Shown piece after piece: positions 9,539 to 32,000 of a stretch of 32,000 nucleotides of DNA (position 1 is its first letter; each line of letters starts with the position of its first letter). The stretch spans positions 150,001-182,000 of the forward strand of contig NC_006512.1 in NCBI RefSeq assembly GCF_000008465.1. The letters are read 5' to 3'. This stretch comes from Idiomarina loihiensis L2TR. Lineage in GTDB: Bacteria; Pseudomonadota; Gammaproteobacteria; Enterobacterales; Alteromonadaceae. The translations under genes were made by a program, and so were the position numbers. The notes under the pieces were generated by a model. It ran no database searches. It had not been told where the DNA came from and saw only the letters and a list, made by a program, of their open reading frames with translations.

Positions 9539-10756
9539 TTAGGCTAGCATTAAACGAGCTTTGTTGATGCCTTCGAACAGCTTATCAACCTCGTCTAGCG
9601 TATTATAAATGGTAAATGACGCGCGCGCAGTACCTGGTACCTTCAGGCGTTTCATAAGCGGTTGAGCGCAGTGGTCACCAGTACGAATGGCTATGCCTTG
9701 CTTGTCCAGCAAAAAGCCAATATCAGCAGGGTGTGCGCCCTCTAAAATAAAGCTTAGCACGCCAATTTTATTGTCGGCGTGACCAACAATGGTTAAGCCA
9801 TCGGTTTGCTCTGCTAGTTGTGTTGCGCGTGCCAGTAAAGCGGTTTCGTGAGCTAAAATATCGGCCTTATTAAATTGCTGTAACCAGTTTATCGCTGCCG
9901 CCAGACCAATGGCTCCCGCGATATTTGGTGTACCAGCTTCCAGTCGGTTGGGTAATTCACCCCAGGTGGCGTCCTGGTAACTGACTGTGGCTATCATTTC
10001 GCCGCCGACTAACCATATAGGCCAGTCTTTTAAAACCTCGTAACAACCCCATAGCACGCCAATGCCGGTTGGCCCGAATAGCTTATGACCGGAAAACGCA
10101 TAAAAATCACAGCCAATGTCCTGCACATCGATAGCGCCATGTGCAACACCCTGAGCACCGTCTATCATGACCAGTGCGTCTTTGGCTTTAGCGGCAGCGG
10201 TGAGTTCTTTAATTGGGTTAATGGTACCCAGCGCATTGGAAATGTGCGGCATTGAAACGAAAGCCGTGTTCTCACTCAACAGAGCGTGAAACTGCTCGGT
10301 ATTCAGTGAACCGTCTTCGTTAATGGGTACGACTTTCAATGTGGCGCCAGAACGCTTACACGCCTGTTGCCAGGTTACTAGGTTCGCATGGTGCTCCATT
10401 TCGGTCACCAGCACTTCTTCACCGGGTTTTAAGCGCTGAGCAACACCATTAGCGACCAGGTTAATACCCTCGGTTGTGCCGCTGGTCCAGATAACCTCTT
10501 CTTGACGATTAGCATGTATGTAATCAGCGACGGTTTTACGTGCCGCTTCGTAGCGACGGGTGGCTTCATCAGAAAGATAATGAGCTCCGCGATGAACATT
10601 AGCGTTGCACTGAGTATAGTAATCCGTCAGCGCATCGATGACCGCTTGTGGCTTTTGCGTGGTGGCAGCGTTATCCAGATAAACCAGTGGTTTACCGTTT
10701 ACCTGCCGTTGCAGTATCGGAAACTGCTCACGAATTTGTGCAACGTTCAGGCTCAT
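9539..10756 (-). CDS. sufS: cysteine desulfurase SufS (group II, PLP-dependent)
   Basis: FPIL...VYLDNAATTQKP N-terminus. PLP-Lys motif FSGHKLFGPTG. Catalytic Cys RTGDHCAQP. Confidence 0.93.
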   Translation of the reverse strand: MSLNVAQIREQFPILQRQVNGKPLVYLDNAATTQKPQAVIDALTDYYTQCNANVHRGAHYLSDEATRRYEAARKTVADYIHANRQEEVIWTSGTTEGINLVANGVAQRLKPGEEVLVTEMEHHANLVTWQQACKRSGATLKVVPINEDGSLNTEQFHALLSENTAFVSMPHISNALGTINPIKELTAAAKAKDALVMIDGAQGVAHGAIDVQDIGCDFYAFSGHKLFGPTGIGVLWGCYEVLKDWPIWLVGGEMIATVSYQDATWGELPNRLEAGTPNIAGAIGLAAAINWLQQFNKADILAHETALLARATQLAEQTDGLTIVGHADNKIGVLSFILEGAHPADIGFLLDKQGIAIRTGDHCAQPLMKRLKVPGTARASFTIYNTLDEVDKLFEGINKARLMLA

Positions 10757-12003
10757 TGCTTCTCCATCATACTTTCAAAGCGGGTTTTCAAAATCGGCTG
10801 CAACCAGTCGGCCAGGGCTTTATTTGGCATCTGGAAAACCATTTCCTGTACGAAACCAAAGTTGAGCATAACCAGCGCTTGTTGCCTGTCGATGCCACGC
10901 GTCAGCATGTAATACAATGCTTCTTCGTCAATTTCAGCAACCGTTGCACCGTGCGCACACTGTACATCGTCTGCGTAAATTTCCAGCTCGGGCTTAGTAT
11001 TAATTTGCGCACCACGAGTCAGCAGCAGGTTACGATTATTCAGTTCGGCCAGGGTTTTTTGCGCATGGCGGTGAATATGAATGCGGCCATTAAATACTGC
11101 TTTTGCCCTGTCACCGATAATGCCGCGGGCGTTCTCTTCGGTCGTGCCGTTAGGTGAGGCATGTTCGATGGTGCTGTGCAGATCGAAGTGCTGGCGTGGA
11201 GCCAGTAAATACACGTTATTAAACTTGGCGAACGCATGCTCACCAGCGTGTTCAATGTCTACGTCCAGACGCGTTAACTGACTGCCGTAGCCAATTAGGG
11301 TGCTGTTCAGTCTGGCGTGATCGTGCAGTTTAAAGTGACTGCCGCCAATATGAATCGCTTCGCCTTCGTGCAGGGCAAAACGGTAATGCTCTAAACGCGC
11401 TTTTTCGGCTATGTCATATTCAGCAAAGACCGTATTCAGGCTGTTACCTGAGCCGCTGCCGTGCTCAATAATGGTTGCCTGCGCATTTTCACCAACACGT
11501 ACCAGCGTGCGCTGATGAGACTCGATACCGGCAGACGCAAAGTTAACAATGCGAATGGGTTGTTCAACTTTAGCGCCAGCCGCAATGTCGATAACGACAC
11601 CTTGCTGCGCCAATACGTCGTTTACCAGGCCAAACAAATGACGGCTGGGTTTTACTTGCGCAAAAATAGCTTCAGCGGGTTCGCTGGGCGCTGACAGCTC
11701 ACTAATAGTGATGCCTTCAGGTAACTTAAGCTTGCTGATGTCGGTACTAAGCTGGCCGTCCACAAACACCAAATCCAGACTGTTTAAGCCTTCAATGACT
11801 GGTGCTTCGGCGGTCGCGTTACCGGTGCTGGATTTCAGCTCTAAATCAGCAACCGGATGCAACGAGGTATAACGCCATGCTTCGGTGCGGCGTGTCGGCC
11901 ATTGCTGTTGCTTTAACGTGTCCAAGGCTTGGGCCCGGACCGGAGATAGCCAATCGTCAACGGTCGAGGCACGCTCTAAAACGTGGTTTAACCATTGACT
12001 CAT
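10753..12003 (-). CDS. sufD: Fe-S cluster assembly protein SufD
   Basis: Position between sufC and sufS with 4-nt overlaps on both sides. C-terminal NTKPELEIYADDVQCAHGATV motif is typical of SufB/D beta-helix proteins. Confidence 0.9.
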   Translation of the reverse strand: MSQWLNHVLERASTVDDWLSPVRAQALDTLKQQQWPTRRTEAWRYTSLHPVADLELKSSTGNATAEAPVIEGLNSLDLVFVDGQLSTDISKLKLPEGITISELSAPSEPAEAIFAQVKPSRHLFGLVNDVLAQQGVVIDIAAGAKVEQPIRIVNFASAGIESHQRTLVRVGENAQATIIEHGSGSGNSLNTVFAEYDIAEKARLEHYRFALHEGEAIHIGGSHFKLHDHARLNSTLIGYGSQLTRLDVDIEHAGEHAFAKFNNVYLLAPRQHFDLHSTIEHASPNGTTEENARGIIGDRAKAVFNGRIHIHRHAQKTLAELNNRNLLLTRGAQINTKPELEIYADDVQCAHGATVAEIDEEALYYMLTRGIDRQQALVMLNFGFVQEMVFQMPNKALADWLQPILKTRFESMMEKQ

Positions 12004-12758
12004 GCATCTGCTCCTTCTGCTTCAGCTAACCAGGCATAACCTGAGGCTTCGACTTCTTTCGCCAGTTCAGGACCGCCACTTTTCACAATTTTGCCTTTGG
12101 ACAGAATGTGCACATAGTCAGGCTCAATGTAATCGAGCAAACGTTGGTAGTGCGTAACCACGATAAAACTGCGTTTGCCGTCGCGCTGGCTGTTCACACC
12201 CTTAGCTACAACTTGTAGAGCATCGACGTCAAGCCCGGAATCAGACTCATCCAGAATTGCAATTTTTGGCTCAAGCATAATCATCTGCATAATTTCGTTA
12301 CGCTTTTTCTCACCACCTGAAAAGCCTTCATTGACGCCGCGCTTTAAGAAGTCGAGCGGTAACTCAACTTGCTTGCAGGCTTCTTTGGCTTTTTTCAGAA
12401 ACTCAGCTGAGCTCAAAGCGCTTTCGCCGTGAGCTTCACGCATGGCATTCACGGATTCTTTCATGAATTCCATGTTGCTTACGCCTGGAATTTCAACAGG
12501 GTATTGGAAAGCCAGAAATATACCGGCCTGGGCGCGCTCTTCTACTTCCATGTCCAGTAAGTCTTTACCGTCCATTTCAACGCTGCCGCTTTCAACTTCG
12601 TAGCCATCGCGGCCAGATAAAACGTAACCTAAAGTACTTTTTCCGGCACCGTTAGGACCCATAATGGCGTGTACTTCGCCGGGTTTTATTTCCAGATTCA
12701 GGCCTTTTAAAATTGTTGTTTCTTCCACACGTGCGTGCAGGTCTTTAATCGATAGCAT
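12000..12758 (-). CDS. sufC: Fe-S cluster assembly ATPase SufC
   Basis: Walker A GPNGAGKST, ABC signature FSGGEKKR, Walker B IAILDESDSGLD. Confidence 0.95.
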   Translation of the reverse strand: MLSIKDLHARVEETTILKGLNLEIKPGEVHAIMGPNGAGKSTLGYVLSGRDGYEVESGSVEMDGKDLLDMEVEERAQAGIFLAFQYPVEIPGVSNMEFMKESVNAMREAHGESALSSAEFLKKAKEACKQVELPLDFLKRGVNEGFSGGEKKRNEIMQMIMLEPKIAILDESDSGLDVDALQVVAKGVNSQRDGKRSFIVVTHYQRLLDYIEPDYVHILSKGKIVKSGGPELAKEVEASGYAWLAEAEGADA

Positions 12759-12761
12759 GTT

Positions 12762-14198
12762 TTACCCCACTGAACCTTCAAGACTGATTTCAAGCAACTT
12801 ACCGGCTTCCACCGCAAACTCCATTGGTAGTTCGCGGAATACCTCTTTACAGAAGCCATTTACAATCATTGAGACTGCTTTTTCAGGGTCCAGGCCTCGT
12901 TGCCGACATAAGAATAATTGATCGTCACTCACCTTAGAGGTGGTGGCTTCGTGTTCAACAATCGCAGTTGGATTGCTGCTTTCAATATATGGGAATGTGT
13001 GTGCGCCGCACTGGTCGCCAATAAGCAGCGAATCACATTCGGTAAAGTTACGCGCGCCCTCGGCACCCGGGCCCATACGAACCAGACCTCGGTAAGCGTT
13101 ATTACTGCGGCCGGCGGAAATACCTTTGGAAATGATGGTGGACTTAGTGTTCTTACCTAAGTGGATCATTTTGGTGCCGGTATCGGCTTGTTGTCTGCCG
13201 CGGGTTAACGCAACTGAGTAGAATTCCCCAACGCTGTTATCGCCTTTAAGAATACAGCTTGGATACTTCCAGGTAACGGCAGAGCCTGTCTCTACCTGAG
13301 TCCAGGAGATCTTCGCGTTTTTCTCGCACAGGCCGCGTTTAGTGACAAAGTTATAGATACCGCCTTTGCCGTTTTCATCACCCGGATACCAGTTTTGCAC
13401 CGTAGAGTATTTGATCTCCGCGTCATCCAGTGCAACCAGCTCAACTACGGCCGCGTGTAATTGGTTTTCGTCACGCTGTGGTGCGGTACAACCTTCCAGA
13501 TAACTAACGTGACTGCCTTCTTCGGCGACAATTAAGGTACGCTCAAACTGACCGGTATTCTGTTCGTTTATGCGGAAGTAAGTTGATAGTTCCATAGGGC
13601 AGCGAACGCCTTTTGGAATATAAACAAACGAGCCATCGGTGAATACGGCGCTGTTCAGTGCGGCAAAGAAGTTATCGCCACGTGGAACTACGGTACCTAA
13701 GTATTTTTTAACCAGATCCGGGTACTTATGAAGGGCTTCGGAGATAGGGCAGAAGATAACTCCTGCTTCTTCCAGCTTCTCGCGGAATGTTGTGACCACG
13801 GATACTGAGTCGAAGACTGCATCAACAGCTACACCCGCGAGCATTTCCTGCTCATGCAGAGGAATACCCAGCTTTTCGTATGTGCGTAGCAGTTCCGGAT
13901 CAACCTCGTCTAACGACTTAGGCTTGTCTTTCATACTCTTAGGTGCGGAGTAGTATGAAATTGACTGGTAATCTACCTTAGGATAATCGACGTGTGCCCA
14001 GTCAGGCTCTTCCATTTTTAACCAGGTGCGATAAGCCTTCAGACGCCACTCCAGCATCCATTCAGGCTCACCCTTAATGGCAGACAGACGGGCAATGACG
14101 TCTTCGTCCAAACCAATTGGGAAAGTTTCTGACTCTATTTCTGAAATGAAGCCTGCGTCGTATTTACGCGCAAGCGCCTGATCAATCTGTTCACTCAT
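12762..14198 (-). CDS. sufB: Fe-S cluster assembly scaffold SufB
   Basis: 478 aa. Conserved blocks [21 protein letters not shown] and [19 protein letters not shown]...HTFPYI. First gene of the operon. Confidence 0.95.
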
Positions 14199-14298
14199 GA
14201 TTTACCCACTCTAAAAGCTGCGGATGGGAGTTTCGCCCGTTACTGGCCGACAGTATAAAATACCTGACTAAAACACTCAACTTTATCTGCTGACCAAC

Positions 14299-14327
14299 AT
14301 TATACGGGATCACAGCCTTTTTGTCGC
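14299..14327 (-). promoter_or_regulatory. candidate sigma70 promoter for the suf operon
   Basis: On the minus strand: perfect -10 TATAAT (14299-14304), a 17-bp spacer, and -35 GCGACA (14322-14327). This implies a leader of roughly 95 nt before the sufB ATG. Confidence 0.4.
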
Positions 14328-14393
14328 TTATTTCGCCGGGTAAGGTAAGCCTGTTGCTCTTTATTTTAAATGCCATAAGGTAAATTAGAATGG

Positions 14394-14412
14394 TTGTTAC
14401 ATTTTGTTACAT
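14394..14412. repeat. direct repeat TTGTTACAT x2 with 10-bp phasing
   Basis: TTGTTACAT at 14394-14402 and 14404-14412, in the sufB/csgD divergent intergenic region. Confidence 0.8.
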
Positions 14413-14490
14413 GTTCTAAGGTGCTATGTCTTTTAGTACAAAATTTAATCATATATTGTAAAGAGCTACATCAATCGTTGTAAAAATGTA

Positions 14491-14512
14491 ATATAAGAAG
14501 AATATAAGAAGA
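14491..14512. repeat. perfect tandem duplication of the 11-mer ATATAAGAAGA
   Basis: ATATAAGAAGA at 14491-14501 and 14502-14512. The repeat ends 45 nt upstream of the csgD-like ATG. Confidence 0.85.
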
Positions 14513-14557
14513 AAAGTACAGTAATAAAATAAGCTTTTAGGTTTAGGGAGGGCTGTT

Positions 14558-15202
14558 ATGGGACGTTATACGCGGTTAGCTTTAATCGAACACCAAAAAC
14601 GTACGCAGAACTTAGGGTTGCTTGCAGAATCCTTAGAAATATCAGTCGTCCATCGTGCATTTTCTGAACTGGTTGATCATTCACCAGAGCCCGAGACCAT
14701 GGTGGCTTATTCTCTTGGATCGGAGCAGTTATCTCGTTCCCACATTACCAGTGAAATTGCTGCATTAACTAAAACCTACCCTTTATTTCTAGTTAATGCG
14801 AGAAAAGATGATGTTCGTCCTATTCAAGCCCTGAACCTTGGTGCTCGCGGTATTATTTACGAAAACGACCATTTAGACCGAGTACTGACCGCGATAAAAG
14901 TTATTAGCCAGGGAGAACTCTATTATCCGCGCTCATTGCTTTCAGATAAAATTGAAGAAATGATGCTGCGGCGGCAAGCGGATGACTCTTTTACTACCGT
15001 GTCTCAAATTAACTCCCTTACACCACAAGAGTTAAAAGTTATAGAGCTGGTTGCTACTGGTGCCCGCAATAAGGAAATTGCTGAGCACTTAAATATCAGT
15101 GCTCATACTGTGAAAACACACTTATCCTCTATTTTTCGAAAGACTGGCGCGCGTAACCGGGTAGAGTTACTAAAGTGGTCCAGTTACGCGACATCAGTTT
15201 AA
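14558..15202 (+). CDS. csgD: LuxR/FixJ-family regulator with receiver-like N-domain, CsgD-like curli/biofilm regulator
   Basis: GGAGG SD 7 nt upstream of the ATG. C-terminal LuxR HTH LTPQELKVIELVATGARNKEIAEHLNISAHTVKTHLSSIFRK. N-domain blocks LFLVNA...GARGIIY...GELYYP parallel E. coli CsgD. Adjacent to csgGFE. Confidence 0.8.
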   Translation: MGRYTRLALIEHQKRTQNLGLLAESLEISVVHRAFSELVDHSPEPETMVAYSLGSEQLSRSHITSEIAALTKTYPLFLVNARKDDVRPIQALNLGARGIIYENDHLDRVLTAIKVISQGELYYPRSLLSDKIEEMMLRRQADDSFTTVSQINSLTPQELKVIELVATGARNKEIAEHLNISAHTVKTHLSSIFRKTGARNRVELLKWSSYATSV

Positions 15203-15208
15203 CGCTGG

Positions 15209-15964
15209 TTAACTCTCTGCACGCCAATAACCCATTTCCAGGCCTTTTTCTATTAACTCCACCAGCGCTCTTTCCATCGCTTGCTTTACCGACAATTGAA
15301 CCGGTTCGTTGGTTGAATAACCGCCCTCGAATTCAGCCAGCCGGTTGAGAGATACGTAGCGAAACAGGCCTGCCCGTAGTTCTTGAGAGAACACTTTCTT
15401 ATTTGCTGATACCGACACCAGCACCTGCCCACTATAAACGTCTACCGCTCGTAGGTAGACGGATACCTGATCTTCCCGGTAGAGTTCAGATGCACCAATA
15501 CCAAAATACTCTGCGCCGATACCTCCGGTACTAACATTGGTGTCGTAGCTTATAATTCCGCCCTCCAGCAACAGTCTGGCCTCACTCAATGGAGGAAGTT
15601 CTTTATTGTCGCCTGAGTTATAAATTTTTCGCTCAGTTAACAGATTTTGCAGGTTTTCACGCTCCATAGGTAAGAACCAACCTGATTCCAGTAACATTTG
15701 AGTGAGCATAGAGGTTGCACCCTGAGTTACTGCGGTAGAAAAGCTGGAAACATTAGCTTGCGGTTTATACTGCCCGGTTTGATCTCTAAAGGCATAAACC
15801 GATACCGGAATACGGGTTTGGGGTAATTGTCTTTGTTTCAAAGCCGTCATTGTAGAGCTGGGCGCGTCAATTTCAGCGGGCTGTATATTGATGTCCGTCG
15901 GTTTGGGCATTAACGCGCAGCCGCTCATAACAAGTGAAGCTAGAATGAGGAAAACTTTACGCAT
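15209..15964 (-). CDS. csgG: curli production assembly/transport lipoprotein CsgG (outer-membrane channel)
   Basis: Lipobox VMSGC. Conserved VSVYAFRDQTGQYKP and TQGATSMLTQ-L-SGWF blocks. I prefer ATG at 15964 (GAGGAG SD 7 nt upstream) over the track GTG at 15979. Confidence 0.9.
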   Translation of the reverse strand: MRKVFLILASLVMSGCALMPKPTDINIQPAEIDAPSSTMTALKQRQLPQTRIPVSVYAFRDQTGQYKPQANVSSFSTAVTQGATSMLTQMLLESGWFLPMERENLQNLLTERKIYNSGDNKELPPLSEARLLLEGGIISYDTNVSTGGIGAEYFGIGASELYREDQVSVYLRAVDVYSGQVLVSVSANKKVFSQELRAGLFRYVSLNRLAEFEGGYSTNEPVQLSVKQAMERALVELIEKGLEMGYWRAES

Positions 15965-15979
15965 GATTATTCTCCTCAC

Positions 15980-16363
15980 TTATATTGAAGGCATGGTGAT
16001 AACTGTCTGTTCACCACTGCCGTTATGAGTGATGTAGACAATAACGCTACCGTCTGGCTGACCAACAACTTCAACCGTGTACTCACCTGTGTCGTACAGG
16101 CCTTCAACAATTTCGCCATCTGCAATGCGGCGGGTAAGTGAATTGATGATATTACGCTCTAACGCTTCGCGGAAACGGTCAACAAAAGAGCGGTCGGAAT
16201 CAGGTGCTGAATGAGCATTCTGAGTTTGTGCTTTTTGTAATAAAAAGTTCCCATTCAATGGGTTTCCACCAAAGCTCGGGTTAATAGGTTGATAGACAAT
16301 TTCTGTTGCTGCGGCATTCACTGCCGTAAACAAAAAACCAATGAAGAGCCAACGTAATTTCAT
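15980..16363 (-). CDS. csgF: curli assembly protein CsgF
   Basis: Signal peptide followed by the conserved IVYQPINPSFGGNPLNG motif, which is the CsgG-pore-inserting N-terminus. Typical size (127 aa) and position. Confidence 0.88.
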   Translation of the reverse strand: MKLRWLFIGFLFTAVNAAATEIVYQPINPSFGGNPLNGNFLLQKAQTQNAHSAPDSDRSFVDRFREALERNIINSLTRRIADGEIVEGLYDTGEYTVEVVGQPDGSVIVYITHNGSGEQTVITMPSI

Positions 16364-16374
16364 AATCTGCGCCT

Positions 16375-16752
16375 TTAAAAATTATTATCTTGTGGCGTAT
16401 CAAATACAGAGTCCGCTTTTACTCGCGCGACTTCGTTAATACTGATCAAAATGGCTTTCTCGGCCATTTTTTTGACATCGTTTTGCCGTCTTCCAAAGTA
16501 GGTCTGGAATATCTTGGTTTGCTCCATCTCAACCCACAAATAGGTGCCAGCCTGAGGATAGACCTGCTCGTGAATAACAACGGTAATACCATTGGTTGAA
16601 GGGATGTCACGCCAATAGCTGGTGTAGTAAAAGAAGAAGTCTTTACCGAAACGTGAAATGGTTCGGTCCAGCACCATGCCGCCAAGCTCTATTTCGTCAG
16701 CCTGACTAACCGGAGTAAACAACAGAACGAGTAGAATGAGTTTCTTTAGCAT
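16375..16752 (-). CDS. csgE: curli assembly/specificity protein CsgE
   Basis: Signal peptide, then ELGGMVLDRTISRFGKDFFFYY, which is typical of CsgE. 125 aa. Directly precedes csgF. Confidence 0.85.
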   Translation of the reverse strand: MLKKLILLVLLFTPVSQADEIELGGMVLDRTISRFGKDFFFYYTSYWRDIPSTNGITVVIHEQVYPQAGTYLWVEMEQTKIFQTYFGRRQNDVKKMAEKAILISINEVARVKADSVFDTPQDNNF

Positions 16753-16764
16753 AAAGACTAAGAA

Positions 16765-16793
16765 AGCGGCTGCACCTAAATGACGCAGCCGCT
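16765..16793 (-). terminator. intrinsic terminator/attenuator hairpin between csgA and csgE
   Basis: 9-bp GC-rich stem AGCGGCTGC / GCAGCCGCT with an 11-nt loop. On the minus strand it begins 12 nt after the csgA stop. It is followed by TTTCTTAGTCTTT, which runs directly into the csgE ATG. Confidence 0.65.
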
Positions 16794-16804
16794 AACCTTA
16801 CTTC

Positions 16805-18292
16805 TTAGTATTGAACAACAGTAGCGACGTTATAGTCGCCTTGCTGATATACGCTCATAGTGTTGCCGTCACTGGCTTGACCGCCGGTAACAACGTTGTA
16901 GTCACCTACTTGCTGAATATCAACGCTGCCATTACTACCGCCAACAATGAACGAGCCGCCATCTCCGGCGATAACGTTGCTGTTACCTTCCTGGTAGAAG
17001 CTAATAAGGTTCTCATTGCCACCGATAATGGTGTCTATTAAGTTGATATCACCTTGCTGTTCGGAATCTAACGTGTTGCCTGAGGTTGTGCCTGCATCGT
17101 AAGAGTAAGCAAGAGTGACGTTGCCATCACCAACCTGGCTAGACATGACATCGTTGTCGTCACCAACAAACACAACTTCGGCTGTGTTTGCATCACCGCG
17201 CTGACGGCTTTGGATATCGTTAGAAACGCCCTGTACAGCCACTCCGTTAAAGTTGTCATCACCACGGCTGCTGACCATAATGTCATTTTGCTCACCGTAA
17301 GATTCACCTACGGCAGTGTTGTTATCGCCAGCCTGCTCAAGTTCAACATTATGCATGTCGCCCTCGGTTGCGAACACTGCGTAGTTATTGTCTCCGCGTT
17401 GGTATGCATCAATTAGGTTGTCATTACCAATCATGCCATTCGCGGCTTCAACAACGTTTGAGTTACCTTGCTGCTGAACAACAATAAAGTTAGCTTCGCC
17501 CTGAATAGGCTGGATCAGGAATTCGTTTGCTGAACCGTCCTGAAATACATCGACAAAGTTTTCGTTACCCTCTAAATCACGAGCTATAAAAATGTTCGAT
17601 GAACCATATTGTTGAGCATAAACTTCGTTGTCGTCGCCGTCCGCGCCAACAACACCTGCAACGTTACCATCACCTTCTTGTGATGCTTCGAAGGTATTGC
17701 GGTCGCCCGACGCATTGAAATAGCCTGATTCATTAAGTGAGCCAGACTGTTCACTTAAGAACAGGTTGTCACTGCCTGAAATCTGGAAGTTGCTCCAGTT
17801 GGAATCGCCTGACTGGTAAATTTCTGCTGTATTGTAGTCGCCACTGAGGTCAATGGCGGCCTCGTTTGCATCACCGGACTGCTCAGCAACTGCAGTGTTA
17901 CCGTCACCCTGCAGGAAAATACTGGCCGAGTTCAAGCTGCCTTCCTGGTAAGCTGATAACCAGTTGTCATCACCGACGGCGTCGGCATTGAAAACGTTCC
18001 AGAGTCCAGACTGCTCACCTTCGACCAAGTTGAAGTCGCCGGTAACGTAAGCATAAGCTTCGTGCCAGTCGTCAAACTGCAACAGTGATGTAACGTTATC
18101 GTCACCGTACTGGTCAGCATACGCCCAGTGTGCAGCTCCGGCTTGTTCAACATACACTTCGTTACCAATTTCAACGGCGCCAGCCGATTCTTGATTAATA
18201 ACAGCGATGTGGTTTTCCGCAACGGCACTACCTGCAAAGGCAATGCCTAAAGCAAGAGCGATGGCACTTTTCTTTATTAGTATTTTCGACAT
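16805..18292 (-). CDS. csgA: giant acidic curlin major-subunit homologue (CsgA-like, 495 aa)
   Basis: Sec signal ending AGSAVA. The rest is almost entirely ~11-aa units centred on G-(D/N/S)-x-N with flanking Q/E and aromatic residues. GGAG SD upstream. Lies between csgB-like and csgE. Confidence 0.85.
   Translation of the reverse strand: MSKILIKKSAIALALGIAFAGSAVAENHIAVINQESAGAVEIGNEVYVEQAGAAHWAYADQYGDDNVTSLLQFDDWHEAYAYVTGDFNLVEGEQSGLWNVFNADAVGDDNWLSAYQEGSLNSASIFLQGDGNTAVAEQSGDANEAAIDLSGDYNTAEIYQSGDSNWSNFQISGSDNLFLSEQSGSLNESGYFNASGDRNTFEASQEGDGNVAGVVGADGDDNEVYAQQYGSSNIFIARDLEGNENFVDVFQDGSANEFLIQPIQGEANFIVVQQQGNSNVVEAANGMIGNDNLIDAYQRGDNNYAVFATEGDMHNVELEQAGDNNTAVGESYGEQNDIMVSSRGDDNFNGVAVQGVSNDIQSRQRGDANTAEVVFVGDDNDVMSSQVGDGNVTLAYSYDAGTTSGNTLDSEQQGDINLIDTIIGGNENLISFYQEGNSNVIAGDGGSFIVGGSNGSVDIQQVGDYNVVTGGQASDGNTMSVYQQGDYNVATVVQY
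16808..18175 (-). repeat. protein-level degenerate curlin repeat array (about 40 strand units)
   Basis: Manual parsing gives units such as GDGNTAVAEQS, GDANEAAIDLS, GDYNTAEIYQS, GDSNWSNFQIS ... GDYNVATVVQY. The DNA copies are diverged; I saw no long perfect nucleotide repeats. Confidence 0.75.
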
Positions 18293-26502: not shown

Positions 26503-26509
26503 AGCCTTT

Positions 26510-26540
26510 GCGCCGCTCGCCCCCGGGCGGCGCATTTTTA
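26510..26540 (+). terminator. intrinsic terminator after ompW
   Basis: Stem GCGCCGC / GCGGCGC with a GC-rich loop, followed by ATTTTTA. Confidence 0.7.
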
Positions 26541-27059
26541 ATGTGGTGAGCGTTTCGACAATTTGCGCTGTAACGTACGCCGATGCATTCCCAGTTCTCG
26601 TGCTGTCTTAGAAACATTTCCCTGATTATCCGTGAGCACTCTTTGAATATGCTCCCACTCAATTTGAGTTGGCGTTAAACGGTTTACCGAAGCGTCTTCT
26701 AACTCCAGTTTCTCATTAGTAAAGCGACGTAGTAATTCATTGGTACCCACGGGTTTCGTTAGGTAGTCCGTTGCGCCGCGCTTCATCGCCTCTACGGTTG
26801 TTGCAATACTGGCGTAGCCGGTTAGTACCACTAAGTGACAGGGGGAGTAGCGTTCTTTGAGTGGTTGAATAAGTGCCAGTCCATTGTCGTCGCCCAGCAT
26901 CATATCCAGCAGAATACCGTCAAAATGACCTTCTAGCGCTAGTGCCTGATGACCCGAGTGTGCCATTTGCACCAAAACACCATGATGCCCCAGACGCCGT
27001 TGCAAAATGCCGCAGAAACCCTCATCGTCATCAATAATAAGCAGCCGGAATTTATTCAT
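26538..27059 (-). CDS. response regulator of the RegA/ActR/PrrA/RoxR family (receiver plus Fis-type HTH)
   Basis: Receiver residues IIDDDE, ILLDMML (phospho-Asp), VLTGY and TKP. C-terminal NVSKTARELGMHRRTLQRKL. 8-nt overlap (ATGAATAA) with the kinase gene. Confidence 0.88.
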   Translation of the reverse strand: MNKFRLLIIDDDEGFCGILQRRLGHHGVLVQMAHSGHQALALEGHFDGILLDMMLGDDNGLALIQPLKERYSPCHLVVLTGYASIATTVEAMKRGATDYLTKPVGTNELLRRFTNEKLELEDASVNRLTPTQIEWEHIQRVLTDNQGNVSKTARELGMHRRTLQRKLSKRSPH

Positions 27060-28149
27060 AGGCTGTTACCGGTAAAAGAACCAACGTGAGCGTGCCCTCG
27101 GAAGTGGATTGCCAGCTGACCTGACCACCAAGCCGTTCAAGTGTGGCATGGCTGATAACCGCGCCAATACCCATACCATTTTCACTTAAGGCCATTGATT
27201 TGCCTATTTTTCGTTGTTGCGCCTGGCTTAACCCATCACCATTATCGAGAATGTGGATGGTGAGCTGAGGATTCGCATCAACTAACGTCAGGTTGAGTTG
27301 CACGGATACGACCAACTGATGACTGCGCTCGCCAGCGCTAATAGCATTAATGACCAGGTTAGCGATAGCCGGGAACAGGGTGCGGTCGGCGCTAATAATG
27401 GTGGTTTTAAAGCGTTCGGGGCATTGCCAGTTGACCTGAGCATCGGGTCGGGCAATTCGCAGAAGCTGACGTAACTGAGTAATAATTTCCCCGACAGTGT
27501 AATTGTGCTGGCGCCTGGTGCGCACGTCTTCAGCAGCGTCCCGCCATTGTTCAAGGCTTGCTTCAACTTTGCCCAGGTGCTCACTAAACTCTTGTTTTAG
27601 TGACAGCTCAATATCGCATTCCTGAAGTTCTTCGTTGAGTAACCGTAACGACTGCACAGGAGTAGCAACGTCATGAGTTAACTGAGCTGCGGCTGCACCT
27701 ATGGTCAAAAGCTGTTCGTCGCGCAGCTGGCGCTCACGTGCATTCTGTAATGCTTTTTCTGACTGAAACCATTGCCGCTTTAGGTAGTACATTGATAAAG
27801 CAATAATAGCCGCTGCAATCACAAAGCCGCTGACCATACCCATGGCGTGTTTCAGCATCTCGTCGCTTAAGGCATGGGCGGTGTGACTTTGCTGCCCGGG
27901 CAAAAGTGAAGGCAATCCTATTTGGGCAACTTGCCCCAGAATGCTTATCAACACAACAATCAAAGCAAAAGTTGGTGGTAACAATAAAAACGCGATGACG
28001 ATAAATATCAGTAATAACGAAGTGAACGGATTACTGATACCACCATTAAAGGCAACCAAGAGGTTGCCCAGTACTATGTCCAGACATAAGGCTAAGCACA
28101 ATGGCCAGGCTCTATGAGTAATAAATTTATAGGTCAGTAATGTCAGCAT
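27052..28149 (-). CDS. membrane sensor histidine kinase of the RegB/PrrB/ActS/RoxS family
   Basis: Multi-TM N-domain carrying the RegB-family quinone-site heptapeptide GGxxNPF (GGISNPF, nt 28024-28044). H-box AAAAQLTHDVATP. N-box NLVINAISAG. G-boxes DNGDGL and GMGIGAV. Confidence 0.85.
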   Translation of the reverse strand: MLTLLTYKFITHRAWPLCLALCLDIVLGNLLVAFNGGISNPFTSLLLIFIVIAFLLLPPTFALIVVLISILGQVAQIGLPSLLPGQQSHTAHALSDEMLKHAMGMVSGFVIAAAIIALSMYYLKRQWFQSEKALQNARERQLRDEQLLTIGAAAAQLTHDVATPVQSLRLLNEELQECDIELSLKQEFSEHLGKVEASLEQWRDAAEDVRTRRQHNYTVGEIITQLRQLLRIARPDAQVNWQCPERFKTTIISADRTLFPAIANLVINAISAGERSHQLVVSVQLNLTLVDANPQLTIHILDNGDGLSQAQQRKIGKSMALSENGMGIGAVISHATLERLGGQVSWQSTSEGTLTLVLLPVTAYE

Positions 28150-28154
28150 CGGGC

Positions 28155-30173
28155 TTAAAAGTGGTAGTTGGTCTGCAGCCAGACAGTACGACCCGGCTCA
28201 TTAACTTTGTCAATTTGCTGGTATCCGGAAATGCTGGCGGCGGAGCGACTCAAGTGCTCTGCATAGGTTTTATCCAGTATATTATCGACTCCTAAACTTA
28301 GCTGCCACTTTGGATCAATTTTCCAGTCGATATTTGCCGATAAAACACCATAACCCGGGCTATTACCGATATCATAGCCAATGACATTGCCCTGATTCAC
28401 TGCTGTGCGCTCTTGTTTATCCACCAGGCGCCAGAGCAAAGAGTAAGTCAGTGCGTTGTGGCGGTAATCAGTGCCAATACGCAGTTCATCAGCAGGTTGC
28501 TGCGGCAGATAGTTATCATCGGTTTTATTACTTCCGCGGGTTATGGCCAGTGCTGATGACACCGACCAGGCTTGGGTCAGTTGGTAACTTAAGGTTGTTT
28601 CCCCGCCCCAGGTTCGGGCATTAATATTACGGACGGTATCCGGCTGCATCATCATGCCTTTTTGCAAAAGAATAAAGTCATCGACCCGACTGTAGAAAAT
28701 GGACGCGTCCAGTCGCCATTTATCGGTGTTTATATCGAGACCAATATCCCATTGTTGGTTGGTCTCTGCGTCGGTGTAAAAAGCCGATTCTGACGTTGGT
28801 GACTGGCGGCTGTTACCAATGGCCTCCCAGTAGTCCGGGAACCGCTCCGCCTGACCCCAACCCGCATACCAATAACCATTTTTAAGCTGTTTTTCTATAC
28901 GAAGAAACCCGCTATGAAGGTTCTCACTGCGTGTTTCATTCGCCGTGGGGTTGGATTGAGCCGGAGCTGACATAGGTTGAATGTCGGTGCGCTTGTCTGT
29001 CATTTTCCAGTGATCAAGCCGATAACCGCTGACTAACTGCCATTCTTGATCTATAGAGTGGCGGTATTCTGCATAAATGCCATCTTGCTCAATAAAAGCG
29101 TCATCAACTCGGTTAAGGCTTTCAAATGGTTGGTTAAACTGATCTTTGCTGGAACGGTTACGGTGAGCCGACTCATTATGTTCAAGCCCAGTTTTGAGTT
29201 GCCCGGAAGGGGGTAACTGCCATTCGGAGGCAATTTTAAAACCACGGGAATATCTATCCGGGTTACTGGCGGTTGGGCTGGGCATCATCATCGACGGGGT
29301 AAACTCGCGCAAAGAATAGTTGTCCATAACGTGGTCAATGGTATTGAAATAGGTATTAACAGAAAGTTCTTCGAGCGAACGGTTGTCAGGTTGCCATTGG
29401 TAATTCAGTGCGACGCTTTCACGGTCAAAGAGCACCCCATCCATACTGCGATCGGCGTAGGCTGCCTCGCCATCGCTGACGCCAAGCTTGAGCATCAGAC
29501 GATGCTGCCGTGAGGGTGTCCAGGCAAGGTCAATATCGCCACTCCAGCGTTCATACTGGCTGTTAATGCTATTACCCGAGCCATCTTCGTAGTCATCGGC
29601 GGTTGCGGCAGATGCGTTCACGCGTACATAGCCTGGTTGCGCTCCCCAGGTTAAATCAGCGGTGGTATTCAGGCGGCCGTACTGCGCTGTGGTGGCATTT
29701 AAGTAACCGGTAAACTCGGGTACTTCAAAGAATGTTGCTTCGCGCTCAAAATGAATAGATGCCGCTGAACCGGCGAACAATACGGTTTGTGGGCCCTTAA
29801 CAATCGTCACGCTGTCATAACTTTGTGGGGTTATGTACGCCGTTGGCGGATCCATGCGGCTGCTACACCCACCCTGCAGCATTTGCCCGTCATTAACTAT
29901 GGTCAGTCTGCCTGCTCCCATGCCGCGGAATAAAGGGTCAGCAGAGGCTCCACCTTTGCGGGTTGCACTAAATCCAGCAAGGCTTTTTAAAAAATCACCA
30001 GCATCGTGAGCAGGCAGCGGTTGTCTGGGTTGTTTCGAATCGACCACCCATTCACTGGGCGACTGCATCGATTCGCCAATAATGACAATTCTTTCCTGAA
30101 TATCGGTGGTTTCGTTAGCGTAACTGACAATTGGCAAGAGTAAGCAAGTTGCCAGAGGATAAATAGCTTTCAT
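28155..30173 (-). CDS. oprC: TonB-dependent copper receptor, OprC/NosA-like
   Basis: Signal peptide, plug domain and C-terminal WLQTNYHF. CxxxM (C103-S-S-R-M107, nt 29853-29867) and HxM (H281-V-M283, nt 29325-29333) match the OprC CxxxM-HxM copper site. The Cys-to-His spacing is 178, versus 180 in P. aeruginosa OprC. Confidence 0.8.
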   Translation of the reverse strand: MKAIYPLATCLLLPIVSYANETTDIQERIVIIGESMQSPSEWVVDSKQPRQPLPAHDAGDFLKSLAGFSATRKGGASADPLFRGMGAGRLTIVNDGQMLQGGCSSRMDPPTAYITPQSYDSVTIVKGPQTVLFAGSAASIHFEREATFFEVPEFTGYLNATTAQYGRLNTTADLTWGAQPGYVRVNASAATADDYEDGSGNSINSQYERWSGDIDLAWTPSRQHRLMLKLGVSDGEAAYADRSMDGVLFDRESVALNYQWQPDNRSLEELSVNTYFNTIDHVMDNYSLREFTPSMMMPSPTASNPDRYSRGFKIASEWQLPPSGQLKTGLEHNESAHRNRSSKDQFNQPFESLNRVDDAFIEQDGIYAEYRHSIDQEWQLVSGYRLDHWKMTDKRTDIQPMSAPAQSNPTANETRSENLHSGFLRIEKQLKNGYWYAGWGQAERFPDYWEAIGNSRQSPTSESAFYTDAETNQQWDIGLDINTDKWRLDASIFYSRVDDFILLQKGMMMQPDTVRNINARTWGGETTLSYQLTQAWSVSSALAITRGSNKTDDNYLPQQPADELRIGTDYRHNALTYSLLWRLVDKQERTAVNQGNVIGYDIGNSPGYGVLSANIDWKIDPKWQLSLGVDNILDKTYAEHLSRSAASISGYQQIDKVNEPGRTVWLQTNYHF

Positions 30174-30203: not shown

Positions 30204-30269
30204 CTATTATTCTCTATTTTTTAGGTGGTTAGGATGCGACAAAAGGTAGCATCCCTTTAGTAGTACCAC

Positions 30270-30581
30270 TTAAAGCGAAGGGCAGAATTTATCTTTCAAT
30301 AACGTCATAAAAGCTTCGGTATCCGGGTCTTTTATGGAGTAGTACACGGTTTGCGACTCTTTACGAATGCTGACCAATTGCTGCTGACGCAATACCGCAA
30401 GATGTTGTGAAAAAGCTGACGGGCTTAAGTCAAAAAACTGATGAAGCTGACCCACACTTTGTTCACCTAAAGCCAGTCGGCATAAAATTTGTAAACGGTG
30501 GGGGTTACCTAAAGAGCGCAGAAAGCTTGCTGCATTCTGCGCCTCTTCCTGATGCATCTCTTGTGATTCAGTTGCACTCAT
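30270..30581 (-). CDS. ArsR/SmtB-family repressor, 2-Cys SqrR/BigR/YgaV-like (candidate persulfide sensor)
   Basis: Winged-helix core LGNPHRLQILCRLALGEQSVGQL...SQHLAVLRQQQLV. Has only Cys34 and Cys100 (spacing 66). There is no ELCVCDL metal site. Confidence 0.75.
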   Translation of the reverse strand: MSATESQEMHQEEAQNAASFLRSLGNPHRLQILCRLALGEQSVGQLHQFFDLSPSAFSQHLAVLRQQQLVSIRKESQTVYYSIKDPDTEAFMTLLKDKFCPSL

Positions 30582-30588
30582 GGTGTCG

Positions 30589-30807
30589 TTATTTTCCTGA
30601 TTTTTCTAACTCACGCTCTGTTTTTAATCCTAAGACTTTTCTCATAAAAATGCCTGCAGGACAAAAACCCGTGAAAGATTGTTGAAATAGATTGGCGCCA
30701 ATAAATACGGTCAGCCATACCCAGTTGGGGTGAACCCAATAAGTCAAAGCTACCGATAACAATACCATAAAGCCTGCAAATGCGGTTATAGCTCTTTCTA
30801 CACTCAT
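30589..30807 (-). CDS. small two-TM membrane protein, DUF2892 (YgaP C-terminal-domain-like)
   Basis: 72 aa. Two hydrophobic helices and the conserved NLFQQSFTGFCP motif. 7 nt upstream of the ArsR-family gene. Confidence 0.75.
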   Translation of the reverse strand: MSVERAITAFAGFMVLLSVALTYWVHPNWVWLTVFIGANLFQQSFTGFCPAGIFMRKVLGLKTERELEKSGK

Positions 30808-30830: not shown

Positions 30831-32000
30831 TTAAAACGCATACCGCATACGCAGATACGCGTTGTTGTTTTCGGTGAACTGGCCAAAAAAGGTCTCTGGA
30901 CGTTCGCGGAAAAATAGGTTGAAGCCGCCGCTTAATGACCAGTTATCGTCAATGCGGTAGTCAAAAGTCGGCCGTAAATAGCCGTCGCTTTGATTCGGTG
31001 ATACAAAAGCAAACAACGACAGATTCAGATCATCACGCTCGTCGCGCCAGGTTAGACGGGTGGTGAATACGGTGCGTGTTTGGTTGTCGCCTTTCTCTAC
31101 GTAAGCCTGAAAGCCGCCGGTAAAGCGCGTCCATAATTCTTGCTCGTAGCCAACCAGTGCGCGCCAATGATCTTCTGCATCATGACGGTTGTAATTGGCG
31201 ACTTCAGTATTCACCAGTCCTGGTCCCAGAGGCATCCTAACGGAGGCGCCAACCACGGTTAAGCGGCCGAAGGTGGGTTGGAAGTTGTCAGTCACTGCCT
31301 CCGGGCTTTTGGTAAAGCCGTCGTAACCATAGACGGCGTATTCCACACCTTCGTGATTACGGAACAAGCGCAAAGCGTACTCATCGCGCGTGGGCTCAAC
31401 AAACTGAATGGACGGATCGTCGCCTGTCAGCTGCTGGGTTAGCGGATTAAAATAAGAAATGCGTTCACCGCGAATGTAATTGTCGGGGTCAAACTCAGGA
31501 GACCAGACAAAGTCGAGATTGAACCAGTCGAAGTAGCTGGTGATACGCAGTGCGTCAGATGGCGCCTTCAAGTATTCCTGGTCACGTCCGACAAAGAAGG
31601 ACTGCCAGTCTTTAGGGAACAGATCGTTAAGGAATAAGTAGTCGCCAGTGCCCCAGGTGAGTACCTGACGGCCAATTTTTATATCGGTGTTATCGAAAAC
31701 CGTAAACTGAGCATTAAGTTCGCGAATTTGACCGTGCCAGGTTTCATCAAAGCCGTCGTACCAGCCGTCGGCTTTTGCTGTCCAGGCAATATCTTGCCAG
31801 CGTTCGTCAAAACCCAACTGTAGTCGAGGCTCAGCAATAGACAGACGCTTGTGATAGGGGGAGGATTCAAATCGTCCGCCTATTGCCGCCTCAACATAAC
31901 CATAGACATCAATACCCTGGTCTTGTTCCGTTCCCCAGTCACTTTCCCATTCGTCATCCCCCCAGGAGTCCTGTGCCGATGCGGCCTGAGCCAAAGTGAA
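30831..32000 (-). CDS. outer-membrane beta-barrel protein of undetermined family, 5'-truncated at the window edge
   Basis: The frame stays open to nt 32000 (..FTLAQAASAQDS looks like the end of a signal peptide). Alternating beta-strand pattern, GRQVLTWGTGD block, and C-terminal YLRMRYAF ending in Phe. Confidence 0.6.
   Translation of the reverse strand, partial: FTLAQAASAQDSWGDDEWESDWGTEQDQGIDVYGYVEAAIGGRFESSPYHKRLSIAEPRLQLGFDERWQDIAWTAKADGWYDGFDETWHGQIRELNAQFTVFDNTDIKIGRQVLTWGTGDYLFLNDLFPKDWQSFFVGRDQEYLKAPSDALRITSYFDWFNLDFVWSPEFDPDNYIRGERISYFNPLTQQLTGDDPSIQFVEPTRDEYALRLFRNHEGVEYAVYGYDGFTKSPEAVTDNFQPTFGRLTVVGASVRMPLGPGLVNTEVANYNRHDAEDHWRALVGYEQELWTRFTGGFQAYVEKGDNQTRTVFTTRLTWRDERDDLNLSLFAFVSPNQSDGYLRPTFDYRIDDNWSLSGGFNLFFRERPETFFGQFTENNNAYLRMRYAF

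Follow-up and report, generated by a model that had tools for sequence, protein, structure and literature searches.

OprC of Pseudomonas aeruginosa and NosA of P. stutzeri are TonB-dependent copper receptors that anaerobic conditions induce and copper represses, the regulator in question being unknown (PMC8610252). The copper ligands of OprC are C143, M147, H323 and M325 (PMC8610252). In Bordetella and Pseudomonas, the CrtA-CrpH system consists of a copper TonB transporter tied to heme-copper oxidases and controlled by CruR, an upstream open reading frame (ORF) (PMC12914433), and in Methylomonas sp. DH-1 the RegB/RegA system activates the feo operon (PMC13274454). The stretch of DNA analysed here, hereafter the window, comprises 32,000 nt of Idiomarina loihiensis L2TR (NC_006512.1, 150,001-182,000), and all positions are given in window numbering. 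It encodes a copper receptor of the OprC/NosA type followed by a short RegB-like sensor histidine kinase and a RegA-like response regulator. Very probably, the RegA-like regulator controls the operon of the copper receptor, and the three genes form a dedicated module with positive autoregulation.

The genes of the predicted operon are the following:

28155..30173, minus strand: TonB-dependent copper receptor, OprC/NosA-type, 672 residues, from the ORF, Pfam, NCBIfam, phmmer and an AlphaFold model.

27052..28149, minus strand: short RegB-like sensor histidine kinase, 365 residues, from the ORF, Pfam, NCBIfam, alignments and an AlphaFold model.

26538..27059, minus strand: RegA-like response regulator, 173 residues, from the ORF, Pfam and NCBIfam; the gene overlaps the end of the kinase gene by 8 nt.

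The receptor and kinase genes are separated by 5 nt (28150-28154), and the overlap of the kinase and regulator genes covers 27052-27059 (ATGAATAA). The preliminary description of this DNA had given the same layout of three minus-strand genes with a 5-nt gap and an 8-nt overlap, with which the ORF coordinates and junctions agree. No terminator-like site lies between the three genes, and a terminator hairpin is present only 3' of the regulator gene. The DNA of the locus is 93% identical to that of I. rhizosphaerae M1R2S28.

By modelled fold, family score and ligand residues, the first gene product is a bona fide OprC/NosA-type TonB-dependent copper receptor. It contains the Pfam domains Plug and TonB_dep_Rec_b-barrel and scores 589.9 bits with the NCBIfam model TIGR01778 ('TonB-copper', TonB-dependent copper receptor), the cut-off of which is 472.45. 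A phmmer search against PDB sequences returned P. aeruginosa OprC as the sole match (6FOK, E 7e-143), and the ungapped alignment places C103, M107, H281 and M283 of the receptor on C143, M147, H323 and M325 of OprC. The earlier assignment of an OprC-type receptor with a CxxxM plus HxM copper site thus holds, since the ligands align and the family score lies above the cut-off. Each of the two motifs (C103-SSR-M107 and H281-V-M283) occurs once in the protein, and the four ligands are invariant across an alignment of 15 homologues (A3). The receptor also has a signal peptide ending in ...SYA and a TonB-box-like ERIVIIG.

The AlphaFold model of the receptor, which was built with 15 homologues, has a predicted local distance difference test score (pLDDT) of 81 and a predicted TM-score (pTM) of 0.82. 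It matches 28 OprC chains with TM-scores of 0.89-0.94 and root-mean-square deviations of 2.1-2.4 A, whereas other TonB transporters, the next-best structural matches, reach only ~0.77. In the comparison of the fold with OprC, TM-scores of 0.91-0.94 and deviations of 2.1-2.3 A go with 39% identity, and domains and model fit the plug plus 22-strand barrel of the family. The model superposes on OprC overall, with low confidence in the CxxxM loop (residues 100-107, pLDDT < 50). Copper import by the receptor is predicted from its membership of the OprC/NosA family.

The linkage of such receptors to kinases of this kind extends well beyond Idiomarina. In an alignment that includes source-named RegB proteins, the window kinase and its close relatives, here called the short type, lack the first ~50-100 residues, which hold two membrane helices. 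The kinase has 35 residues before its GGxxNPF motif, against 85-150 in long-type or RegB-named kinases. A scan with one genome per species found 377 relatives of the kinase, the best 80 of which were retrieved, and the kinase-side locus counts stem from these. A TonB receptor of at least 600 residues, on the same strand and ending within 400 nt, is encoded directly upstream at 43 of 46 short-type loci. Two of the remaining three lie at contig ends, and in Oceanobacter (L040) the position is taken by mbnP-mbnH and an unknown gene. The neighbourhood check proposed with the preliminary description therefore finds the RegB-like kinase/TonB copper receptor linkage in related genomes. What the loci have in common is confined to receptor, kinase and regulator; the flanking genes vary by lineage. 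From the receptor side, a RegB-like kinase is adjacent in 15 of 80 metagenomic OprC-type loci (receptors 39-72% identical), with seven kinases co-directional downstream and eight divergent. The possibility that the linkage is a synteny accident of Idiomarina only is ruled out by these kinase-side and metagenomic receptor-side loci.

Three receptor families, only 17-21% identical to one another, occur upstream of short-type kinases. The OprC type is found at kinase-linked loci of a subset of Idiomarina and one metagenome-assembled genome (MAG) only. The other two, termed the GFF and NFG/DFG types, are 17-21% identical to the window protein and fall below every NCBIfam cut-off. In the loci L017-L057, the GFF type has ~700 residues and the signature CANQMNPP...HEMGFF (e.g. 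L034:5828-7966), and the NFG/DFG type has ~755 residues and the signature CPNHMNPP...HMMNFG (e.g. L025:5564-7825). The columns of the OprC ligands hold the full Cys/Met/His/Met set in all 49 receptors encoded upstream of related kinases. Because the ligands are kept across three families, the constant feature is the copper site rather than one receptor lineage, and the GFF and NFG/DFG families are probably unrecognised copper receptors. Neither motif is present at the ligand positions of 11 unrelated TonB receptors that lie by long-type Pseudoalteromonas kinases and served as a negative control. This TonB receptor, encoded 1.7 kb downstream of the kinases, was considered as another copper receptor and rejected, as it has no CxxxM and no aligned HxM. 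In Alteromonas, the NFG/DFG receptor gene is preceded by two PepSY_TM genes. In I. aquatica (L003:548-3814, L016), a second TonB receptor (717 residues) and a PepSY_TM gene lie divergently beside the OprC-type module and resemble CrtA-CrpH.

The breadth of this linkage bears on the simplest alternative, namely that the pair is an ordinary global RegBA/RoxSR redox regulator that merely lies beside a copper receptor gene with no dedicated link to it. The best family matches of the pair are ActS/PrrB/RegB and ActR/PrrA/RegA, and the regulator could have many targets outside the 32-kb window. In addition, a second RegBA-like pair was seen in none of the named Idiomarina species, and in the search for such a pair the long type turned up only in MAGs and Aliidiomarina. 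Against this stands a linkage that spans three receptor families, many genera and differing flanks, and the alternative is considered very unlikely in view of this and of the promoter, exchange and family evidence that follows.

The promoter region of the receptor gene contains two predicted elements:

30235..30251, minus strand: predicted operator of the RegA-like regulator, an imperfect palindrome TGCTAC-CTTTT-GTCGCA, from conservation and motif fit.

30206..30211, minus strand: -10-like hexamer AATAAT of the predicted promoter, 23 nt past the operator, from the alignment of upstream regions.

The aligned upstream regions of 10 Idiomarina loci share an invariant block, TGCTACCTTTTGTCGCATCC, followed 21-23 nt on by an invariant ATAAT. 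In the window, the operator core is a single exact copy in 32 kb. The consensus across all loci is a 17-bp palindrome, TGCGAC-AATTT-G(T/C)CGCA. When the span from -300 to +60 of the receptor ORF is searched, a match of at least 10 of 12 positions is present in 47 of 49 receptor-linked loci, against 1.6 expected from how often such matches occur elsewhere in these loci, and this presence in the receptor promoter also counts against an undedicated global regulator. The sites lie about 55-150 nt upstream of the receptor ORF, mostly at -76 to -84. Among the 80 metagenomic OprC loci, 18 have a match of at least 11 of 12 (0.4 expected), and nine of these 18 are without an adjacent kinase. The target motifs published for RegA, PrrA and RegR are those quoted in PMC5506826. 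The family consensus GCGACAATTTGTCGC agrees with the RegA motif SSGNVRDNHYSNCSS at 12 of 12 positions, with the PrrA motif YSCGGC(5)GWCRMA at 11 of 12 and with the RegR motif GNGRCRTTNNGNCGC at 10 of 11 specified positions.

The 6 nt adjoining the operator (TCCTAA) form a poor -35, and from the conserved -10 we infer a start ~44 nt downstream of the operator centre, which would be the geometry of an activator site. In a consensus promoter scan, sigma-70-like sites were less frequent than in shuffled sequence and the conserved -10 was not picked up; the promoter call is therefore based on conservation. The view of the three genes as one unit, put forward in the preliminary description, gains from a linkage conserved far beyond this genome and from a RegA-type operator in the promoter, on which co-transcription appears likely. 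Upstream of the operator, the minus strand carries genes for a ygaP-like membrane protein of 72 residues (30589-30807) and an ArsR/BigR-like regulator (30270-30581), a gene pair found in some Idiomarina only. An ArsR-family protein as the partner of the operator is ruled out, as the operator is kept in arsR-free loci (L002, L003 and all non-Idiomarina loci).

Beside related kinase-regulator pairs, sites of the form TGCGAC-N5-GTCGCA are also found upstream of mbnP-mbnH (L007:2417, L040:4542), of a PepSY_TM gene (L080:9611), of Tll0287-like and cydAB genes (L005:4008) and of a redoxin-fold gene (L078:7203). The operator further precedes OprC-like receptor genes in L054, L064 and L066. This suggests a wider copper and respiration regulon, whose members would share copper acquisition, plus one case of a copper-free bd oxidase. 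The OprC-like receptors at L054:9600-11714 and L064:9722-11812 keep H.MDN and have lost CxxxM, with a perfect operator 42-77 nt upstream.

The receptor and kinase also move together. In I. ramblicola (L034) and I. aminovorans (L039), the flanks are 83-88% identical to the window at the DNA level. On one side the similarity extends as far as the operator, which it includes (window 30233), and on the other it sets in again halfway through the regulator gene (window ~26822); no DNA similarity to the window is detectable between these two points. The cassette in between encodes a GFF-type receptor, a kinase and a receiver domain that are 19%, 40% and 44% identical to those of the window, respectively, followed by a C-terminal regulator half that is 69-77% identical. 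Because they are replaced together while the operator and DNA-binding domain stay, the receptor, kinase and receiver half are taken to be inherited and exchanged as a unit. Such joint replacement is a further point against a global regulator that is adjacent only by chance.

The regulator contains a Response_reg domain (7-112) and an HTH_8 domain of the Fis type (131-169) as defined by Pfam, with no AAA+ domain. Its best family is ActR/PrrA/RegA, for which NF033791 gives a full-length match (4-173 of 173) of 146.3 bits with a cut-off of 250. The closest solved homologue is 3RQI (E 8e-42), a response regulator which we take to be a RegA homologue. The helix-turn-helix of the regulator is nearly identical to that of 3RQI (...ARELGMHRRTLQRKLSKR versus ...ARALNMHRRTLQRKLAKK), and the two have the recognition helix MHRRTLQRKL in common. 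The effector domain of PrrA (1UMQ) is matched with an E value of 7e-11, and the heavy-metal response-regulator model TIGR01387 gives 53.6 bits with a cut-off of 279.

The kinase resembles RegB in a reduced form. Its best NCBIfam family is ActS/PrrB/RegB (NF033792, 76.5 bits with a cut-off of 350); for the Rhodobacter RegB model the score is 42.1 bits, with a cut-off of 570. The AlphaFold model (pLDDT 78) has four membrane helices (14-34, 41-56, 59-82 and 96-~125) and no periplasmic domain. The first periplasmic turn, which connects helix 14-34 to helix 41-56, carries the motif GGISNPF (residues 36-42), and G(G/A)xxNP(F/Y) is present in 52 of 52 short-type kinases examined. The H-box His159 is invariant, and HATPase_c at 257-361 scores 39.6 bits, above its cut-off. 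Where RegB has its redox-active Cys (Cys265, downstream of the H-box), the window kinase has Trp202, and all 49 distinct short-type kinases have Trp. Most of the aligned longer RegB-like kinases (P0016, P0017 and P0019-P0024, two of them source-named RegB) have Cys in this column, within ...QxxxC(K/R)xIL.

The pair is RegB/RegA-like in architecture and, judged from sequence, belongs to a separate short lineage. Because both proteins score far below the equivalog cut-offs, they are not regarded as RegB/RegA (RoxS/RoxR) orthologues, and these scores likewise disfavour the reading as a global RegBA. The preliminary description was right in seeing a polytopic RegB-type kinase with GGISNPF and a receiver plus Fis-type helix-turn-helix regulator, each with RegB or RegA as its nearest family; orthology does not stand, given the scores (76.5 versus 350 and 146 versus 250) and the four helices and W202 of the kinase. 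Aliidiomarina iranensis has two such kinases on one contig (NZ_PIPJ01000001.1), a short-type one accompanied by a GFF-type receptor (L021) and a RegB-like one of the long type (P0036). Because both coexist in this organism, the short and long kinases are paralogous lineages, which again counts against an ordinary global system. A search for plasmid-borne copies of the module returned long-type kinases only, on second chromosomes of Pseudoalteromonas and on Thioclava and Vibrio records.

A second feature of the kinase is a His/Met-rich periplasmic loop at residues 83-105 (window ~27835-27903), with H89, H92, M98, H101, M103 and M105. The loop, of ~22-33 residues before the last transmembrane helix, contains two to five His and one to six Met in every short-type kinase, and H101 and M105 are invariant among them. 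The second outward turn (83-95) is modelled as disordered and exposed, with residues 83-93 at pLDDT < 50. The loop is not diagnostic of the short type, because many longer RegB-like kinases have a similar one. It is widespread in beta- and gammaproteobacterial RegB-like kinases (L058-L086, P0075/P0076), some of them source-named RegB, and might reflect metal binding in the family.

These features are consistent with an autoregulated copper-acquisition module in which the kinase reads the quinone pool, possibly with feedback by copper, and this signal is somewhat favoured over others. All three genes would be driven by one promoter. Once phosphorylated, the RegA-like regulator would bind the 30235-30251 palindrome abutting the poor -35 and activate the whole operon. 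The kinase, a reduced membrane sensor of the RegB type that has four helices and lacks a periplasmic domain, would, like RegB, read the quinone pool at the G(G/A)xxNPF site that it has kept. Over-reduction of the respiratory chain, caused by low oxygen or by copper-starved heme-copper oxidases, would then switch the OprC-type importer on, and restored oxidase activity would switch it off. Direct negative feedback may come in addition from copper bound to the periplasmic His/Met-rich loop. Quinone sensing is favoured because G(G/A)xxNPF is strictly kept although other features of RegB have been lost from the sensor, and because the anaerobic induction of OprC and NosA is documented but unexplained. 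The layout of the genes, their families, the conserved linkage and the conserved operator are direct observations; from the sequence we infer activation rather than repression, co-transcription and the identity of the signal.

The same loop underlies the main competing view, in which the kinase senses copper itself, in the periplasm or the membrane, and not redox state. Imported copper would bind the loop (H92, H101, M105 and neighbours), shift the kinase to phosphatase mode and turn the importer off, which would make it a sensor of copper sufficiency, opposite in sense to CusS/CopS. The presence of the loop in every short-type kinase with H101 and M105 invariant, its disordered and exposed state in the AlphaFold model, the loss of the redox cysteine and the tracking of kinase type with receptor type in the cassette swap all fit this view, as does the repression of OprC and NosA by copper through an unknown route (PMC8610252). 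It leaves the strict retention of the quinone-site motif without explanation if quinone is irrelevant, and the same His-rich loop occurs in many long-type or RegB-named kinases away from copper genes. Taken together, a sensor of copper alone is judged unlikely, although less so than a global RegBA. The coupling of copper acquisition to respiratory redox state proposed in the preliminary description accordingly keeps its dedicated linkage; the redox signal is drawn from G(G/A)xxNPF only, and direct copper sensing through the His/Met-rich loop could equally apply.

Substrate-responsive two-component systems beside TonB receptors are an established pattern (PfeRS, cited in PMC7190382), and periplasmic copper or a copper chelate could in principle activate the kinase to produce more receptor, as in the PfeS/PfeR system of the enterobactin receptor. 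Such feed-forward induction is scarcely credible here. Positive feedback on the import of a toxic metal is implausible, copper represses rather than induces OprC and NosA (PMC8610252), the kinase has no periplasmic ligand-binding domain, and the regulator is of the Fis type and not the OmpR type.

Several points weigh against the quinone-reading, autoregulated module. The case for regulation is one of comparative genomics throughout, and the loci were selected by similarity and are related by descent, so that fewer independent events underlie the counts than these suggest. The operator scan of this genome spans the 32-kb window only. The transfer of quinone sensing from RegB is uncertain because the kinase lacks the redox Cys and two helices and scores far below the RegB cut-off, and the His/Met-rich loop argues for copper as at least a co-signal. 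Finally, the ygaP-like and arsR genes stop 18 nt short of the operator without an intervening terminator, and read-through from them into the copper operon is possible because no terminator precedes the operator.

The remainder of the window provides the context of the module, which is bounded downstream by one further element:

26509..26534, no strand assigned: putative bidirectional terminator, a GC-rich hairpin with T-runs on both sides, which would end the operon and the convergent ompW gene.

Farther upstream, a 387-residue ORF at 30831-31994 (minus strand) has no Pfam or NCBIfam match and an outer-membrane-barrel-like C-terminus (...RMRYAF); its homologue in L001 lies behind MMPL and TP_0789-like genes. 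The genes noted in the rest of the window (9539-18292) are ordinary, and none is related to copper. They include a SUF iron-sulfur operon (9539-14198, minus strand), a LuxR-type regulator and two subtilases, along with csgG (15209-15979, minus strand) and a curlin-repeat protein gene (16805-18292, minus strand). Rfam detected no structured RNA or riboswitch above gathering thresholds in the leader or elsewhere in the window.

The regulation of outer-membrane copper import in Gram-negative bacteria is an open question, for which the module supplies a testable candidate kinase, regulator and 17-bp operator. Many bacteria of marine and other environments have the arrangement, the range extending from Idiomarina to uncultured environmental proteobacteria. 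Two unannotated families are added to the probable copper receptors, and mbnPH, PepSY_TM and cytochrome bd genes become linked to the same type of regulator. The kinase is a natural variant of RegB, cysteine-free and with four helices, in which quinone sensing can be set apart from thiol sensing. A broader proposal, possible but doubtful at present, is that this branch of the RegB family is a sensor of copper demand, in which the redox state of the quinone pool, and not the metal, drives outer-membrane copper import through a conserved operator. If true, the importers under such a demand sensor would comprise the OprC type, the two unannotated CxxxM/HxM families and mbnPH. In a stronger form, the His/Met loop would bind copper, and combining copper status with redox state would be a general property of RegB-type kinases.

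The literature search found no paper on RegBA-type regulators linked to OprC, to copper TonB receptors or to MbnPH, nor any publication describing the module or its operator, which agrees with the earlier remark that this organisation is uncharacterised. The receptor is a further member of a known family, whereas the kinase and regulator form a reduced version of RegBA that is new with respect to the literature found. The window receptor has the same fold and the same CxxxM-HxM ligands as OprC (P. aeruginosa PA3790) and NosA. It is ~40 residues shorter at the N-terminus than OprC (residue 29 aligns with OprC residue 69), and it has MMMPSP in the Met-rich stretch where OprC has MMPMP. Unlike the OprC system, the window operon has no PepSY_TM (PA3789-like) partner gene, and the kinase and regulator pair encoded 3' of the receptor is not described for Pseudomonas oprC.

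Among two-component systems, the closest is RegB/RegA, also known as PrrB/PrrA, ActS/ActR and RoxS/RoxR. It has in common with the window pair a polytopic kinase without a periplasmic domain, the GGxxNPF motif, the H-box and the HATPase domain, as well as a small receiver plus Fis-type helix-turn-helix regulator with a near-identical recognition helix and a fitting target site. The window kinase differs in its four transmembrane helices, against six in RegB, and in the Trp that replaces the redox-active Cys; the window pair has sub-cut-off scores and is encoded downstream of a copper receptor, to which it is apparently dedicated, rather than with senC/prrC. CopRS/CusRS likewise place a membrane kinase and a regulator beside copper-handling genes. 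These systems sense excess copper through a periplasmic domain of ~130 residues, and their OmpR-type winged-helix regulators induce efflux and detoxification. In contrast, the window regulator has HTH_8 (Fis-type) instead of Trans_reg_C, a periplasmic domain is missing from the kinase, and the predicted target encodes an importer.

Two further systems are close in concept. CrtA-CrpH likewise provides outer-membrane copper import for respiratory oxidases (PMC12914433). CrtA differs from the window system in belonging to another receptor family that handles chelated Cu(II), under post-transcriptional control by an upstream ORF and with no two-component system. RegBA of Methylomonas sp. DH-1 also serves metal uptake for the respiratory chain (PMC13274454). 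Unlike the window pair, it concerns iron, is a canonical global system that is not operonic with a transporter, and regulates its TonB receptor only indirectly.

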